A stretch of DNA of 64,000 bases, taken from NCBI GenBank assembly GCA_963706955.1, contig CAVPOC010000013.1, forward strand, positions 28,407 to 92,406, read 5' to 3'. The notes under the pieces were generated by a model that was not told where the DNA came from, ran no database searches, and saw nothing but the letters and a program-made list of their open reading frames with translations. The translations under genes were made by a program, and so were the position numbers. The DNA is from an uncultured Verrucomicrobiae bacterium (GTDB lineage: Bacteria > Verrucomicrobiota > Verrucomicrobiia > Chthoniobacterales > Terrimicrobiaceae). Positions 11,009-18,394 of the stretch are shown in pieces; the first letter of the stretch is position 1, and the number at the start of each line of letters is the position of its first letter.

Positions 11009-12091
11009 TCAGGAGGAGAGACGGACCGCCCGGCGCGTTGCGCCCCAGCTTCCCGGCCGACGCTCGAAACGCCCGGGTATGTAAGCACCACAGTCTTCGC
11101 ATCGATGATCGATCAGGTTCCACTCACCCAGCTGGTACCAATCGCGTTCGATGAGAAGTTTACCGCACCCTGGGCAGAAGGTGCTGCTGCCATCCGGGTC
11201 ATGGACGTTGCCGGTATAGACATAGTGCAAGCCCTTCGAGAGAGCTATTTGCCGCGCGCGGTCCAACGTTTGTCGTGGAGTGCGCGGCTTGTTGAGCATT
11301 TTGAAATCGGGATGGAAGGCCGTGAAGTGCCACGGCACATCAAGTCCAAGGTTTTCGGCGAACCACTCCGCGGCGCGATGAATCTCCGGGTCGCTGTCAT
11401 TCTCATCCGGAATGAGCAGTGTGGTGACTTCAAACCAGACGTCAGTTTCCTTGAGAAATTTCAGCGTCTCGAGCACCGGTGCGAGGCTGGCGAAGCAAAG
11501 TCGGTGGTAAAAATCCTCTGAGAAGGCTTTGAGATCCACATTCGCGGCGTCCATGTGCTGGTAGAAGTCGATACGAGCTTCGGGGGTGATATAACCTGCG
11601 GTGACGGCGACCGTTCTGACGCCCTGCTCACGGCACGCTTGCGCGACGTCGATCGCGTATTCAGCAAAAATGACAGGGTCGTTGTAGGTAAATGCGACCG
11701 ATCGGCAGCCATGCCTCCGAGCTTCACGGGCGATCTCTTCTGGGGAGGCGGTGTCGGCCAACTTATCCCATTCGCGCGCTTTGCTGATGTCCCAGTTCTG
11801 ACAAAACCGGCAGCCGAGATTGCAGCCGGCTGTGCCAAAGGAGAGCACGCTGGTTCCGGGCAGAAAATGGTTAAGTGGTTTTTTCTCGATGGGATCGATG
11901 CAGAACCCGCTGCTGCGGCCATAGGTAGTCAGGACAATTTGGTTATCCAAACGCTTTCGAACAAAGCAGAAACCACGCTGGCCTTCGTTCAGCTTGCAAA
12001 AACGCGGACAAAGCTGGCATTCCAAGCGTCCGTCAGGAAGGGGATGCCACCATCGACCGGGATAGTTGGATTCAGTCACAGATTTGGCCAT
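11009..12091 (-). CDS. amrS: AmmeMemoRadiSam system radical SAM enzyme
   Basis: CQLCPRFC...GFCFVR, DPIEKKPLNHF, CNLGCRFCQNWDIS (CxxxCxxC) and a C-terminal CPGCG..C..C. Confidence 0.93.
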   Translation of the reverse strand: MAKSVTESNYPGRWWHPLPDGRLECQLCPRFCKLNEGQRGFCFVRKRLDNQIVLTTYGRSSGFCIDPIEKKPLNHFLPGTSVLSFGTAGCNLGCRFCQNWDISKAREWDKLADTASPEEIAREARRHGCRSVAFTYNDPVIFAEYAIDVAQACREQGVRTVAVTAGYITPEARIDFYQHMDAANVDLKAFSEDFYHRLCFASLAPVLETLKFLKETDVWFEVTTLLIPDENDSDPEIHRAAEWFAENLGLDVPWHFTAFHPDFKMLNKPRTPRQTLDRARQIALSKGLHYVYTGNVHDPDGSSTFCPGCGKLLIERDWYQLGEWNLIDHRCEDCGAYIPGRFERRPGSWGATRRAVRLSS

Positions 12092-12935
12092 CTTTGTCTA
12101 ACCTTGGAAGCTTGATCGTTCTGGCCCGAGACAATATAGCCACGCTGTAGCCGACGCCAAACGGCCCTTCGTAGCTAAGGAGCTCACCCCCGGCTGCGGA
12201 AAACCGGAGGGCGGCGAGAACGACAAGCAACGGCGCAATTACATCTTGCCCCGCCGAGGTCTCTAGGTGGGGATCGAGCTGCAAAAGGTCGCGGTATGCG
12301 CCCCGCTTCAAGACATCCACGAGCCAGCAGTCAAATTCCCGTCCGCGCGGGTCGTAGCCGAGTGGGGCGCCGATCGTCAGCCGATGGCTCATGTCTCCAC
12401 TGGCGATCAGAGCAACTCGGCGGCTCGTGGATGCTGCAGCTTCGGCAATCGTTTCGCCAAGTGCGATGAGAGTTTTCCGGTCCGCGGAGTTTACAGCCAG
12501 GACGGTAGTTGGGCGATTCCAACCTGCTTCCGCAATAAACCAAAGAGGCACGGTCGCTCCATGGTCGAGCGAGGATTCCGTGATGGAAGCGATGTCCAGT
12601 CCGCGGCGAGTGCACAGAGTTGCGACTATGTCAGCAAGCATTGCGTCGGCGGGTAGATCGATGGTCCGGTGCGGAACGCGAAACGCCCGGAGCGATCCCC
12701 GCAGACGCTCGCCGCGCCAGATACCTACCGGTTTAGACATGCACGGCGAATGCGGAGATATTACGACCAGGGTATCAGCAGCTGCGGCGATGATTGATCG
12801 CGCGGCTTTACGCATCGCGGAGAGAGTCGTGGCGATGTCGTCGTGGCGAGGGCCGCCGACGCCGGGAATTAGGATAGGCGCGTGTGGCAGAAGAGCTCCA
12901 CAGACTACACTACCGGCAAGAGCAGAATTACTCAC
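12072..12935 (-). CDS. LigB/Memo-like (class III extradiol dioxygenase subunit B fold) partner of AmrS
   Basis: LLPHAPILIP, VISPH, LDHGATVPL, ASGDMSHRL and LSYEGPFGVGY. It overlaps the amrS start. Confidence 0.85.
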   Translation of the reverse strand: MSNSALAGSVVCGALLPHAPILIPGVGGPRHDDIATTLSAMRKAARSIIAAAADTLVVISPHSPCMSKPVGIWRGERLRGSLRAFRVPHRTIDLPADAMLADIVATLCTRRGLDIASITESSLDHGATVPLWFIAEAGWNRPTTVLAVNSADRKTLIALGETIAEAAASTSRRVALIASGDMSHRLTIGAPLGYDPRGREFDCWLVDVLKRGAYRDLLQLDPHLETSAGQDVIAPLLVVLAALRFSAAGGELLSYEGPFGVGYSVAILSRARTIKLPRLDKDGQICD

Positions 12936-13586: not shown

Positions 13587-14843
13587 CTATCTCGGGTCCG
13601 CGACGCGTCCAATAAAGAGGCAAGCTCCGCTTGGGCGATGCTGAATGGCAAAGAGGAATGGCCGGTCGACGCGAACCTCGACAGGTTTCGGTTTGTCCAG
13701 GTGGGCGGTGGCCCGCATCATGACAACGGCAGTCGCGGCGGCTGCTTCTGTTCCCTTCTCATCAATCTCGACGAAGGTTTTGTGAAAAACGTTGGAGATG
13801 TAGAGATAGTCATTCGCTCGCCGCGGCGCTATCCCGTTGAAGTTTGCGCTTCCTTGCGGGACGTCAAAGGCGCTTTCCATGCCAAGCGCTTCGAAGGTTT
13901 TTCTCAACGCGAAGAGAGGCGGCTCCAGCCTCCATTTGGGCAAATAAAGAAGAATTTCCTCAGGCTTCAGACGCGCGCATTCCGCCAGCAGATCCGGAGT
14001 CAATTTGCTTTCGAGTTTTGGGAGTCCCACCGCGGTGTCTGGCAAGAGCACGAGAAACTGGAGATCGCCACCTGTGTACGGAAGTGCGACGGCAACAAAC
14101 CCGTCATGCTTAGCGTAACCCAAGGCATCCTGGCGTCTCATCGTCGGCACATCCGCACTTGAACCGTCGGCAAAATGAAATGCGGCTGGGACAGTCTCGT
14201 TCTGTTTGAATTCCTCTTTCCAGGGAGCTTTGAGATAGACCGCATTGGCGAGCACCAGACGTGTGTCCTTGTTGAGCGCATTCGGTGGGATCAAATCGCG
14301 GATTCGTTCCCTCGTCTGTTCGGCGATCCAGCTGTTAATGTGCTTGGTGGCGCCGGCAGAATCGCTGATGAAATCGAGGGCTTCGAGTGGCGAGTCCAAC
14401 GTCTTCTTGAGCAGCTCGAGGTAGGCAGGTCGAAAATCGTATCCCCGTTGTCCGAATAGCCTGTTCGCAACCGTCAATGTAATCGGCTCGCTTGGCCCAC
14501 CGGCTTTCTTAGACTCGGCGGCGATCTTTGCCGTCCGCTGAGCCATTTCATCGAGTTCGTCCTGGAGCCGGGCAAAGTCTCTCACGATATCCGGATCGCT
14601 GGGCGGATAGTGAAGCACCCGGGCCATTTGCTGCCGGGTGTCCCCCTCAGCGCCGGCATAAGTCATCACAAGAGCGAGTTGAATCGAGTAGGGGGAAAAG
14701 GCTGTGTTCTCCTGGGGCGGCGCGGCGTGAGCAAGCAGATCGAGCGCCAGATTGTTCACCGCGCGAGCAGCGGTGGTCGACGGATCGACTGCCGAGAGGC
14801 AAGAAAGCGGCAGCAAGAGGGCGGCGACAATTTTGCTGTTCAT
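13587..14843 (-). CDS. Secreted serpin (serine protease inhibitor)
   Basis: FSPYSI, LVLANAVYLKAPW, hinge EKGTEAAAATAV and VDRPFLFAI. Signal-like N-terminus from ATG 14843. Confidence 0.95.
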   Translation of the reverse strand: MNSKIVAALLLPLSCLSAVDPSTTAARAVNNLALDLLAHAAPPQENTAFSPYSIQLALVMTYAGAEGDTRQQMARVLHYPPSDPDIVRDFARLQDELDEMAQRTAKIAAESKKAGGPSEPITLTVANRLFGQRGYDFRPAYLELLKKTLDSPLEALDFISDSAGATKHINSWIAEQTRERIRDLIPPNALNKDTRLVLANAVYLKAPWKEEFKQNETVPAAFHFADGSSADVPTMRRQDALGYAKHDGFVAVALPYTGGDLQFLVLLPDTAVGLPKLESKLTPDLLAECARLKPEEILLYLPKWRLEPPLFALRKTFEALGMESAFDVPQGSANFNGIAPRRANDYLYISNVFHKTFVEIDEKGTEAAAATAVVMMRATAHLDKPKPVEVRVDRPFLFAIQHRPSGACLFIGRVADPR

Positions 14844-14844
14844 G

Positions 14845-17067
14845 CTAGATCTCCTCGCGCAGGAGCTTCTCAATGGTTTGGGACCAGGCGGCGTCGAGGT
14901 CGGTTAAGGACCACCCGAATGTCTTGCCATCGGCCGAAATCCTTAGCGAGTCGGACTTGGTAACTATCCCCAAACGATGGGCTGGCACGCCGCGCCACTC
15001 GAGGAGCGCCAGCGCTACCGATGCGTTTTGTTTCTTCACAGAAATAATGATCCGCGATTGCGTTTCATTGAAGATCAGCACGTCGGCACGCAATCCGGTC
15101 TCGCCGAAATCCACCTCGGCTCCATGCGGCTCGGGTCCGCTCAAGCAAGATTCAACCAGGGCGATAGCTAATCCACCTTCAGAACAATCGTGCGCGCTCT
15201 CGACCAGGCCAATCTTTATCAAGGCGCGGACTGCCGCTTGAAGAGCTTTCTCGCGGGCAAAGTCCAGCCGAGGCGGAGGCCCCTCTTTTCGTCCATGCAC
15301 GATCTTAAGATAGTGCGACGCACCCAGCTCATTTCCCAGCTCACCAACAAGCAAAATCACATCCCCGGCTTGCTTGAAAAACTGAGTGGTGATGTCTTTC
15401 GAATTCTCGATCAGCCCCACCATGCCGACCGTTGGCGTAGGATCGATTGTGCCCGCAGGGCTCTCGTTGTAGAGGCTGACGTTTCCCCCCGTCACAGGAA
15501 TATTGAACTCTCGACAAGCATCGGCCATTCCTTCGACAGCTTCACGCAACTGCAGGAAATTTTCCGGTTTATAGGGGTTTCCGAAATTGAGGTTGTCGGT
15601 GATGGCCAGCGGGACCGCCCCTGAGCACGTCAAATTGCGCGCGGCTTCAGCAACAGCAATTTTCGCCCCTTCTCTCGGGTCCTGCCGGCAATAGAGGGCG
15701 TTGCAGTCCGAGGTTGCGGCGAGAACTTTGTCCGCCTCGCGCACGATGAAGACGGCCGCATCTGAACCTGGTCGCACCGCGCAACCGAGCCGCACCATGT
15801 GGTCGTACTGTCGCCAGACCCAGCGCTTTGAAGCGATGCTCGGATGGGAAGAGAGTTGGATCAGCGAATCGCGGACGTCCACCTCTTGAACAGAGGTGAG
15901 ATCAAGTGGCGGGGGAGGATGTCGTTCCGATGCTTCGCGACGATAAACGGGCGCTTCATCGGCGAGGGCGCGAGCAGGAATTTCAACGACAGTCTTTCCC
16001 TCTTCCTTGACTCGCATGAATCCGTCACCAGTGACGATGCCGATCTGCGCATAAGGCAAGTCCCACTTCTCGAAAATTTCTTTGACTCTGACTTCCTCAC
16101 CTTTTTTCACGATGACCAGCATACGTTCCTGGGATTCGCTCAGAAGGATCTCATAGGGCGTCATCCCAGTTTCTCGCTTTGGCACGAGCGAGAGATCGAT
16201 TTCCACGCCGGTTCCGCCGCGACTTGCCGTCTCACAGGTCGAACATGTCAGACCGGCAGCACCCATGTCCTGGATGCCCGCGACGCAGCCGCTCGCGAGC
16301 AATTCAAGGCAGGCCTCGAGAAGTAACTTTTCGCGAAAGGGATCCCCGACCTGGACTGCTGGACGATCTTCTTTCGATTCCTCGGTCAAGTCGCGGGAGG
16401 CAAACGCAGCTCCAGCCAACCCATCGCGTCCGGTCTCCGCCCCAACATAAAACACGGGATTTCCGATTCCCGTGGCGGCGCCGCGGGCGATTTGGCCGTG
16501 GCGCAATATTCCAAGGCAAAAGACATTCACCAGCGGATTGCCGGCATACGATTCATCGAAATAGGTCTCGCCGCCAATCGTAGGGACCCCGATACAGTTT
16601 CCGTAGTGGGCAATGCCCGCTACGACGCCCGCAAAAAGGTGACGGTGGGCGGGATCTGTGAGCGGACCGAACCGCAGCGAATTCAAACTAAAGACCGGCC
16701 TTGCACCCATCGTAAAGATGTCGCGAATGATGCCGCCCACCCCCGTGGCGGCTCCCTGAAAGGGTTCAATGGCGCTGGGATGGTTGTGACTTTCCATTTT
16801 GAAAGCCACCGCCCAATCATCGCCGATATCGATCACCCCGGCGTTTTCCTCTCCGGCCCCCACCAGCACCCGATCGCCACGGGTGGGAAATTTTCGTAGT
16901 TCGAGCTTCGAATTCTTGTAGGAACAATGCTCGCTCCACATGACCGAAAACACGCCAAGCTCGGTGAAGTTCGGCTCCCGACCAAGAATTCCGCAGATCC
17001 GTTCATACTCCTCGGGGGTAAGACCGTGCTTGGCGATCACTTCAGGCGTAATGAGTGGATCTGGCAT
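14845..17067 (-). CDS. purL: Phosphoribosylformylglycinamidine synthase subunit PurL
   Basis: [38 protein letters not shown] and HDCSEGG. Start placed at ATG 17067. Confidence 0.97.
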
Positions 17068-17072
17068 TTTTT

Positions 17073-17223
17073 TAACCACAGAGGACACAGCTAACCACAG
17101 AGAACACAGAGGAAAGTCATTAGAGAAATGCACTTCAGGCCGTCTCTGAGCTTAAGACATGTGATCACGGCCCGAGTGACCTGTTTATCAGCAAACTCTG
17201 TGCCCTCTGTGTTCTCTGTGGTT
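17073..17223. mobile_element. Miniature internally deleted derivative of the GxxExxY repeat-flanked unit (MITE-like)
   Basis: Inverted CACAGAG arrays at 17073-17111 and 17196-17223. The minus-strand ORF 17091-17240 reads [34 protein letters not shown], matching three separate segments of the GxxExxY protein. Confidence 0.75.
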
Positions 17224-17242
17224 GGTCTTTGTTGAGGCATTT

Positions 17243-17677
17243 TAACCACAGAGGGCACAGAGAACACAGAGGAAGGTCATAGAGAGATTCGCTTGAGACC
17301 ATCTCTAAGCATTGGGACGTTGAAGTTGACAAGGAGGCCTGTCCGCAATCCGGTGAGCTTCAGATATGTGATCACTTGAGCATGGTGAATCGGAAGCAGT
17401 TGGTCGATGGCTTTGACTTCGATCAAAACCTTGTTGTCGACGATCAGATCAGCTCGGAACCCCATCTCGAACCGAATGTTGTGATACACGATGGGGATCT
17501 CCTTTTGAATTTCGACAACATGTCCTCGCGTGCTCAATTCATAGGCGAAACACCTTTCATAGACCGATTCGAGCAGGCCCGGGCCGAGTTCCTTGTGCAC
17601 GCAAATCGCTGAGCCGATGATGGCTTCAGTGACCTCTTTATTAAGAAACTCTGTGCCCTCTGTGTTCTCTGTGGTTA
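17243..17677. repeat. Inverted arrays of a 9-bp NNCACAGAG unit bracketing the GxxExxY gene
   Basis: TAACCACAGAGGGCACAGAGAACACAGAG (17243-17271) and CTCTGTGCCCTCTGTGTTCTCTGTGGTTA (17649-17677). Confidence 0.9.
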
Positions 17678-17681
17678 GCAT
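17277..17681 (-). CDS. GxxExxY protein (PD-(D/E)XK nuclease-like fold)
   Basis: VHKELGPGLLESVYE, FRADLIV...IEVK and AQVITYLKLTG..GLLVNF. Confidence 0.93.
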   Translation of the reverse strand: MLTTENTEGTEFLNKEVTEAIIGSAICVHKELGPGLLESVYERCFAYELSTRGHVVEIQKEIPIVYHNIRFEMGFRADLIVDNKVLIEVKAIDQLLPIHHAQVITYLKLTGLRTGLLVNFNVPMLRDGLKRISL

Positions 17682-17683
17682 CG

Positions 17684-18394
17684 TCAGGCGACTTGGCGCA
17701 GAGGGGAGGCGGGCCACTCGAGCATGCTTTGGAAAATGAGCAGGCCGTCGGTGCTACCTAAGAGCGGGTCGCAAGCTCGCTCCGGATGAGGCATGAGGCC
17801 GCAGACGTTGCGGGCCTCGTTGCAAATTCCAGCGATATTGTCTTTCGAGCCGTTCGGGTTTGCCGCCTCGGTGGTGCGCCCGCGCGCATCGCAGTAACGG
17901 AACAGCACGCGACCTTCACGTTCGAGATCGTGGAGAATGGCATCTTCAGCAAAATAGCAGCCCTCGCCATGCGCAATGGGAAGACGCAGGACGGTTCCGT
18001 TCCATGTGGCATTCGTGAAAGGACTGTTATGTCGCTCGACACGGACATGTATATGCTCGCAAATGAAGTGAAGCCCCCGATTGCGAACCAAAGCGCCTGG
18101 CAAAAGCCCCGACTCGCACAAGATTTGGAAGCCGTTGCAAATGCCGATGACCATCCCGCCGTCGGCAGCAAAGCTTTTTACAGCGCGCATTATTGGCGAG
18201 AAGCGCGCAATAGCACCACAGCGCAGGTAGTCGCCGTAGGAAAATCCGCCCGGCAGCACAACCGCATCGAATCCGGCAAGCGAGGTCTCCTTGTGCCACA
18301 CATAGTCCGCGTTGCCGCCGGGAATTGAGTTGAGCGCATGAATACAATCCTGGTCGCAATTAGACCCGGGGAATTGAAGGACTGCGAATTTCAC
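17684..18394 (-). CDS. purQ: Phosphoribosylformylglycinamidine synthase subunit PurQ
   Basis: [33 protein letters not shown] and MPHPER. Confidence 0.97.

Follow-up and report, generated by a model that had tools for sequence, protein, structure and literature searches.

The window, i.e., the whole stretch of 64,000 nucleotides that was analyzed, contains a small gene with inverted repeat arms between two host genes, and all features of this locus lie on the minus strand. The upstream host gene is purQ (17684..18394; NF002957, E 1e-100, above the cut-off), and its stop at 17684 is located 2 nt ahead of the ATG of a GxxExxY gene (17277..17681). This gene encodes a protein of 134 amino acids, to which HMM searches, residue conservation, and structural modeling assigned a PD-(D/E)XK RecB/Cas4-like nuclease fold. 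The N-terminus of the ORF reads MLTTENTEGTEF, and, thus, the left arm of the full unit (17649..17677), which consists of three 9-bp units of NNCACAGAG, encodes residues 2-11 of the protein. The right arm (17243..17271) is the left arm inverted, again with three NNCACAGAG units. It is followed by a junction (17224..17242), consisting of a duplicated purL start (AAATGCC) and 12 nt of non-repeated sequence, and by a mini unit of 151 bp (17073..17223), which was recognized by sequence comparison as an internally deleted copy of the full unit. A 49-codon entry of the ORF list (17091..17240) extends across the junction and the mini. The downstream host gene is purL (14845..17067; NF002290, above the cut-off). 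Read along the minus strand, the order is purQ, the full unit, AAATGCC plus 12 nt, the mini from 17223 to 17073, and the purL start at 17067. The coordinates of the arms, the ORF, the mini, and the 49-codon ORF that had been given in the initial annotation all hold, as does its statement that the left arm encodes the N-terminus, and GGTTAAAA(AAA)TGCC was indeed found after both units, the full one and the mini.

The arms are tandem CACAGAG repeats, which are not self-complementary and carry no GTAG/CGTC tag. The genome of the window (4.16 Mb, 92.5% complete) is designated G000 in the comparison of the genus. In this genome an arm 18-mer had 30 matches with at most one mismatch versus none for the reversed pattern, and with at most two mismatches there were 42 matches in 16 clusters, while eight shuffled patterns gave 0-7. 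For the 681-nt region a strong RNA fold with paired outer arms was predicted (z -6.45), in agreement with the earlier proposal that the region forms a hairpin. Because of the 30 versus 0 matches and this fold, the arms are not due to chance.

Two other parts of the window drew attention. The gene at 13587-14873 (minus strand), which overlaps the end of purL, has the look of a secreted serpin, and its EKGTEAAAAT hinge is presumably a serpin motif. By eye, a radical-SAM gene adjoining a Memo/LigB-like gene was seen at 11009-12935 (minus strand).

The GxxExxY gene and its protein

Profile searches showed that the protein is a member of the GxxExxY family, TIGR04256 / PDDEXK_3 PF13366 (TIGR04256: E 4e-42, 143 bits versus a cut-off of 35; PF13366: E 2e-41, 141 bits versus a cut-off of 22). 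PF13366 was its sole family match, and no GIY-YIG was detected at E 0.1. The GxxExxY motif is present as GLLESVY. No variation was seen at E38, D78, and N119 among 90 homologues, and E88, K90, H99, Q102, and Y106 are conserved in at least 90%, a level that applies to the catalytic residues. The structure model had a pLDDT of 91.4, with values below 50 for residues 1-11; an earlier model with a pLDDT of 51.7 was left aside. The best Foldseek match was Cas4 SSO0001 (PDB 4ic1, E 2.6e-3), and nothing was retrieved at E <=0.001. A wide structure search (VIA) resulted in tied top scores for BpuSI (Z 8.1, rmsd 2.9, 91 aligned), SSO0001 (Z 8.0, rmsd 4.4, 100 aligned), and 3ijm (Z 8.0). These scores are middling, level with those of PD-(D/E)XK proteins of unrelated function, and the nearest folds are mostly DNases. 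A sequence search of the PDB with the protein gave no match. The PD-(D/E)XK-like fold proposed earlier was borne out, as the nearest matches of the model are PD-(D/E)XK proteins and E38, D78, E88, and K90 are conserved. The model supports an intact PD-(D/E)XK active site and implies no specific activity.

Cas4 (SSO0001) and RecB-like nucleases are alike not only as top fold matches, but also in the motifs D..ExK and QxxxY. In contrast to Cas4, there is no four-cysteine Fe-S pattern among the conserved columns of GxxExxY, no CRISPR context was seen, and the protein is shorter (134 versus about 200 aa).

In the genome, this is the only full gene with NNCACAGAG-type arms. The best full-length relatives in the genus (76-78%) are all situated between purQ and purL, and no full-length ectopic copy of the NNCACAGAG arm type was found in the genus. 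A protein with 75% identity is labelled Terrimicrobiaceae, which makes a verrucomicrobium the probable host. The dN/dS ratio was 0.08-0.17 in five of nine comparisons, the other four being saturated and giving no ratio, and the synonymous divergence was comparable to that of purQ and purL. These values indicate that the gene is under purifying selection and that it was probably inherited vertically. A horizontal replacement of the gene was considered and is unsupported, since pS was mostly saturated and similar to that of purQ and purL.

Copies at the home site and elsewhere in the genus

The purQ-purL junction was compared in 16 genomes of the genus, including that of the window. The gene is intact in four of them (G000, G010, G012, G013) and broken, deleted, or missing in the other 12, i.e., frameshifted in two, internally deleted or truncated in four, and reduced to arms without a recognizable gene in three, while one genome has a short junction of 16 bp (G002) and two have unrelated or unrecognizable inserts of about 100 bp. 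Outside the genus, the gap is at most 23 bp in 10 of the 13 genomes in which the two genes are adjacent, and three have inserts, two of which hold GxxExxY remnants; two further outgroup genomes had no purL in the locus and are not part of the 13. The initial annotation had proposed to look for an empty or variable site in relatives. The junction does vary widely and is short in most outgroups, but in G002 the element was more likely lost secondarily, since both halves of its short junction flank the element in its sister genomes. A TTAA target duplication, an idea that came from this 16-bp junction (TTGATGTTAAAATCCC), was rejected, as the left ends of ectopic copies vary.

Several other arrangements were seen. 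A full gene with 59% identity immediately precedes purL in another genus, where the upstream gene is a different one and purQ is not adjacent. In G020 (L016:1084-1419), likewise from outside the genus, a 36%-identical GxxExxY gene is located upstream of purQ, at one more junction of this operon. On a metagenome contig, purQ and purL are separated by one full unit with 85% identity. The purQ-purL gap of 113 bp in G006 (L014) is a different inverted-repeat insert, of the GAAGGGAGAGAAAGGCC type, and G006 is the sole congener without CACAGAG arms. DNA contigs of the same species from four studies contain both the gene and the mini; the loss of a 9-nt arm unit and a 10-nt loss were seen in single contigs each, and none of the contigs had a clean empty purQ-purL junction. 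Skip joints in these contigs were disregarded because of their short sides or foreign letters.

Two tandem units are present at the home site in six of the 16 genomes, in either order. Remnants of the purL start were found between the units in G000 and G013, a remnant of the purQ end in G010, and in G001 the spacer consists of 24 nt of purL followed by about 25 nt of purQ. The layout of the junction in G001, G010, and G013 is like that in the window, with longer purL and purQ remnants. The unit therefore duplicates together with short host flanks.

The mini of the window fits this pattern. It shares an identical left arm with the full unit, whereas identity drops to about 70-80% in the gene remnants. 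On the purL side, the arm of the mini consists of two units, a break shifted by 1 nt (GGTTAGCTGTG), and a further part-unit, so that the claim of equal ends for both units applies to the left arm, but not to the right one. The same odd purL-side end is found in the single deleted home-site unit of the close relative G016, which keeps other parts of the gene, and because of this the mini is most likely an old local tandem duplicate that has since decayed. A master copy with a local duplicate that has decayed is the better reading of the full unit and the mini. The autonomous/non-autonomous pair proposed in the initial annotation is only partly right and, in its classical form, not supported, since the minis do not form one uniform family and there is a single full gene of the arm type. 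The first six codons of the mini ORF (MPQQRP) belong to the junction that separates the units, and the ATGCC of this ORF is the duplicated purL start rather than element sequence. In addition to the in-frame stitching of gene parts described for the mini of the window, the frame is kept in the deleted home-site copy of G009, but this is not a general rule, as the frame is lost in the translated home-site copy of G011 and is not kept in the ectopic copies. Selection for an in-frame mini peptide was rejected, because the frame is lost in most other deleted copies; a profile search with the 49-codon ORF gave no family match, and the ORF is probably incidental.

Outside the home site, the genome contains 33 arm ends at 22 loci, some of which are probably due to chance at this stringency. 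Inner sequence derived from the 5' or 3' end of the gene was found at 11 of the 33 ends, i.e., at 8 of the 22 loci (P <=0.0012, computed against 5,000 random windows). Each ectopic copy has its own internal deletion, and minis of 140-185 bp occur at several loci. Across the genus, 2 of 15 genomes have a copy between metF and WYL, 3 of 15 at the hydrolase site, and 2 of 17 at the smpB site (where the contig of G016 ends), and the genomes with a copy at these three sites are always among G000, G007, and G016. Of six genomes compared at the can-yjbQ site, G000 and G016 have a copy there, and G007, G017, G001, and G008 have none. At another site, G016 has a copy that G000 lacks, and at two ectopic sites of G000 no arms are present in G016. 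The empty alleles contain no trace of the element. The site C3:186.5k was not part of this comparison, as no orthologous flank was recovered. The 5' half of the gene is still present in the smpB copy of G007, but much less of it in that of G000; therefore, the copies were longer at insertion and decayed independently afterwards.

The ectopic unit at the metF-WYL site (G000:C7:108015-108388, L068) is itself tandem, with about 40 nt of the left flank duplicated, and thereby repeats the pattern of the home site. Neither a consistent target-site duplication nor poly-A was seen at the ectopic copies; the empty alleles are only 80-95% identical, and a very short target duplication could be hidden. 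Ectopic copies also occur between divergent or convergent genes and in antisense positions, so that the proposed insertion within housekeeping operons holds for the home site, but not for the ectopic copies in general. G000, G007, and G016 were the only genomes in which ectopic copies derived from the gene were seen, while the ectopic matches in G010, G001, and G004 are arm-only; the clade G013/G012/G018 was outside this search. Arm counts in the genus were highest in G000 (30), and G002 has 13 despite its empty home site. The idea that arms are better kept where the gene is intact gave a mixed result that is confounded by indels.

The origin of the ectopic copies was traced by their flanks. 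The purL start stands directly after the right arm at three of ten ectopic sites (16 flanks of 30 nt each), with best P values of 0.00014, 0.0026, and 0.0026 against 50,000 random genome windows. The three sites had been spotted by eye before testing, so that these P values are after the fact, and with 16 flank tests about 0.05 hits would be expected at that level. For the remaining seven sites P was >=0.11. At the hydrolase site of G016 the arm is followed by AGAA and ATGCCAGATC, i.e., by the start of purL, and, in general, the first 10-25 nt of purL travel with some copies. In one ectopic copy of G016, at a site that is empty in G000, the right end is doubled in the same odd way as in the purL-proximal unit. 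Several ectopic copies retain the ATG of the gene ahead of the left arm, but no significant match to the purQ-side flank was found beyond the ATG region. The purL start attached at three of ten sites therefore identifies the purQ-purL locus as the donor, with ragged ends.

The genome search for arrays that had been suggested initially thus revealed arms beyond the locus, one full gene, and eight gene-derived loci. The notion of a mobile, poorly described element gained support from the arms and gene pieces at other loci and from ectopic sites that are empty in most congeners. As for the findings that had been named as speaking against it, the arrays are not confined to this locus and the junction varies among relatives, but the mini is, most likely, indeed a local tandem duplicate.

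Three additional features of the genome were recorded. A second intact GxxExxY gene, 39% identical (G000:C3:723820-724260, minus strand; L076:1821-2260), is located between metK-like and ahcY-like genes and has its own 9-bp arms of the CACAGAT type, of which there are 25 at 19 places (reversed control: 1). None of its 25 arms showed gene-derived copies, and an independent repeat of the donor-flank pattern was not found for this arm family. An arm-only hairpin of 66-69 bp is present directly upstream of an aspS-like gene (G000:C1:169864-169931) and is kept in at least eight genomes of the genus (L086, L091, L094, L097, L100, L108, L203), with conserved arms and unrelated loops. Lastly, a Y1 (RAYT-like) transposase gene (G000:C8:934657-935184, L388) lies between GTAG-type repeats. 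These have 53 matches genome-wide, mostly as inverted pairs about 44 nt apart, and are probably a REPIN family; two of them are inside or beside GxxExxY-derived units (C2, C3:159.9k).

Distribution across phyla and comparison with known systems

Inverted arms flank 26 of 30 GxxExxY genes of this phylum. In a set from many phyla (80 loci fetched, two of which were dropped because of short flanks), arms scoring above all shuffles were found at 54 of 78 loci, and an arm score of at least 30 was reached at 46 of the 78 versus none of 73 offset controls. The arm periods are 8-12 bp across phyla, and the cognate right arm was the best partner in 29 of the 46 loci. In 46 of 69 loci the upstream gene has the same sense, according to a crude frame test. 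Because full genes are mostly in sense orientation and ectopic minis are also antisense or divergent, this operon-junction bias may reflect which copies stay expressed. PF13366 has an estimated 23,000 or so matching stretches in GTDB genomes and was above the cut-off in 60 of 121 genomes of this phylum. In the passage on PF13366 in PMC3424549, the family is listed with unknown function and multiple transfers between bacteria and archaea, and that passage is silent on repeat arms or dispersed copies.

Two known systems resemble the GxxExxY cassette. The first is RAYT/REP/REPIN, which also has one vertically inherited enzyme gene with its own flanking repeats, paired inverted repeats dispersed through intergenic space, and tandem clusters of units with 5' and 3' flanks and a short non-repeated spacer; the latter are described in a part of PMC3116915. 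In contrast, RAYT is a Y1 HUH transposase and GxxExxY has a PD-(D/E)XK fold, the Y1 genes of this genome being located elsewhere, REP is a GTAG-tagged palindrome and not a tandem 9-bp array, and the dispersed GxxExxY units hold pieces of the enzyme gene and number tens, not hundreds. The second system is Ssn with its NTS/SRM repeats, which shares a small single-domain nuclease gene with cognate repeats on both sides in an IS-like layout, repeats that are also dispersed, and many enzyme-repeat pairs across phyla. According to a section of PMC11893778, SsnA cuts ssDNA a few bases outside its repeat. Here, the differences are that Ssn is a GIY-YIG enzyme (cd10448) and not RecB/Cas4-like in fold, that each NTS is itself a semi-palindromic hairpin while the GxxExxY hairpin takes two arms, and that the left arm of GxxExxY is translated and its ssDNA cutting is only predicted. 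By analogy, the GxxExxY cassette would work like RAYT/REPIN and Ssn/SRM and is a member of neither, because the enzyme fold and the repeat type differ. A literature search, thin in the subscription literature and without supplements, retrieved no published description of GxxExxY arms, and the cassette with its arms is apparently undescribed in print.

Possible mechanisms and significance

The comparisons established, at the level of sequence, that the element is copied together with flanking DNA, locally as well as to distant sites, that the inside of the copies decays while the arms stay, and that the nuclease gene itself is intact and selected. Judged by this record, it is mobile in the evolutionary sense. 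It is likely to be a selfish element that spreads slowly and would be copied with the help of its own enzyme.

In the mechanism that we favor, a long-resident cassette of nuclease and arms at purQ-purL would be copied with short, ragged host flanks. The arms would pair when the DNA is single-stranded, and the predicted nuclease would recognize the 9-bp arms and nick the ssDNA just outside of them. The freed, folded fragment would be pasted back beside the donor, yielding a tandem, or be captured at a distant break by end-joining or microhomology repair of the host; Ku is present in the genome. Copies outside an expressed operon would lose the gene by loop deletion and end as arm-only hairpins. 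The insert may be tolerated within the operon because the purQ stop and the purL start would come to lie close together once the outer arms pair. Cutting of this kind by the predicted RecB/Cas4-like nuclease, followed by recapture of the folded fragment next to the donor or elsewhere, has, in our judgement, an even chance of being the correct explanation. Several points count against it. Long inverted repeats promote deletions and duplications without a dedicated enzyme, and cutting or binding of the arms by GxxExxY is a prediction. In addition, no ectopic full-length copy exists among those found, seven of ten sites are without a purL remnant, and the second gene is without derived copies. 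More tentatively, and with somewhat less than even confidence, GxxExxY cassettes may in general be widespread, transposase-free mobile elements, in which a nuclease of about 130 residues reads its own tandem arms of 8-12 bp, cuts outside of them, and thereby releases copy-out fragments that include host flank; a separate sequence-specific nuclease would then belong to each arm type.

A rather unlikely alternative is a domesticated Ssn-like system, in which the nuclease serves the host, e.g., by cutting incoming or exposed ssDNA at the arms, and the dispersed copies result from passive hairpin-driven slippage and illegitimate recombination. The single-copy state of the gene, its purQ/purL-like synonymous divergence and low dN/dS (0.08-0.17), the lack of ectopic full copies, and the retention of the hairpin upstream of aspS in at least eight genomes would agree with it, and RAYTs, which are likewise single-copy and vertical, are read as co-opted in a part of PMC5581495. 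However, the gene is intact at the home site in only 4 of the 16 genomes, which fits a dispensable element, and eight gene-derived ectopic loci in one genome are many for accidents.

It is improbable that the element acts at the level of RNA, with the arms of the purQ-purL transcript pairing into a long stem, which would be processed as intervening sequences are, and with the trimmed RNA, including short flanks, sometimes being reverse-transcribed in trans and inserted. No RVT_1 match was found in the genome (92.5% complete), ectopic copies are also antisense and between divergent genes, neither poly-A nor a target duplication was seen, and the nearest folds are mostly those of DNases. The strong fold with paired outer arms (z -6.45), the short ragged flanks, which would fit a processed RNA, and the predominant sense orientation of full genes with the upstream gene (46 of 69, by the crude frame test) are the points in its favor. 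Contigs from RNA libraries, a source that cannot show transcription, were sparse, covered parts of the gene, and had no clean skip joint.

Mobilization in trans, most plausibly by the RAYT (Y1 HUH) of this genome, is quite improbable as well. In this case GxxExxY would be cargo, or a homing-type nuclease with the defense of the purL junction as its only role. The RAYT-like Y1 gene between GTAG-type repeats (C8:934830), the 53 matches of this repeat family, and its occurrence inside or beside two arm units (C2, C3:159.9k) point in this direction, but the arms are tandem, non-palindromic, and without a GTAG tag, six of the eight gene-derived loci have no GTAG-type repeat among the matches listed, and the arm sequence tracks the GxxExxY gene across phyla. 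The 59%-identical full gene that immediately precedes purL, without an adjacent purQ, in another genus and the GxxExxY remnants at the purQ-purL junction of two more outgroups indicate a repeated occupation of the purL junction, which would be compatible with a free-standing homing endonuclease. A classical autonomous element with a MITE, i.e., a uniform mini with defined ends moved by GxxExxY as transposase, shares with the cassette the terminal inverted repeats of short non-coding units (here the minis of 140-185 bp at several loci) and a related longer coding unit, but it is largely refuted and hardly tenable, because every mini has a different deletion, even the orthologous smpB copies of G000 and G007 differ, the imprecise, ragged ends carry donor flank that differs between left and right, no consistent target duplication was seen, and the unit is without a DDE or Y1 transposase.

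Taken together, the locus provides PF13366, a family of no known function, with a candidate substrate, i.e., the arms, with a predicted zone of cutting that reaches up to about 25 nt outward from them, and with a donor-recipient record of copying. If the enzyme of this putative selfish element does not drive the copying, common intergenic hairpins are still explained as the decayed copies of one gene. If it does, GxxExxY would be the third independent pairing of a nuclease with dispersed repeats, after RAYT and Ssn, and the family would be a possible source of small sequence-specific nucleases.
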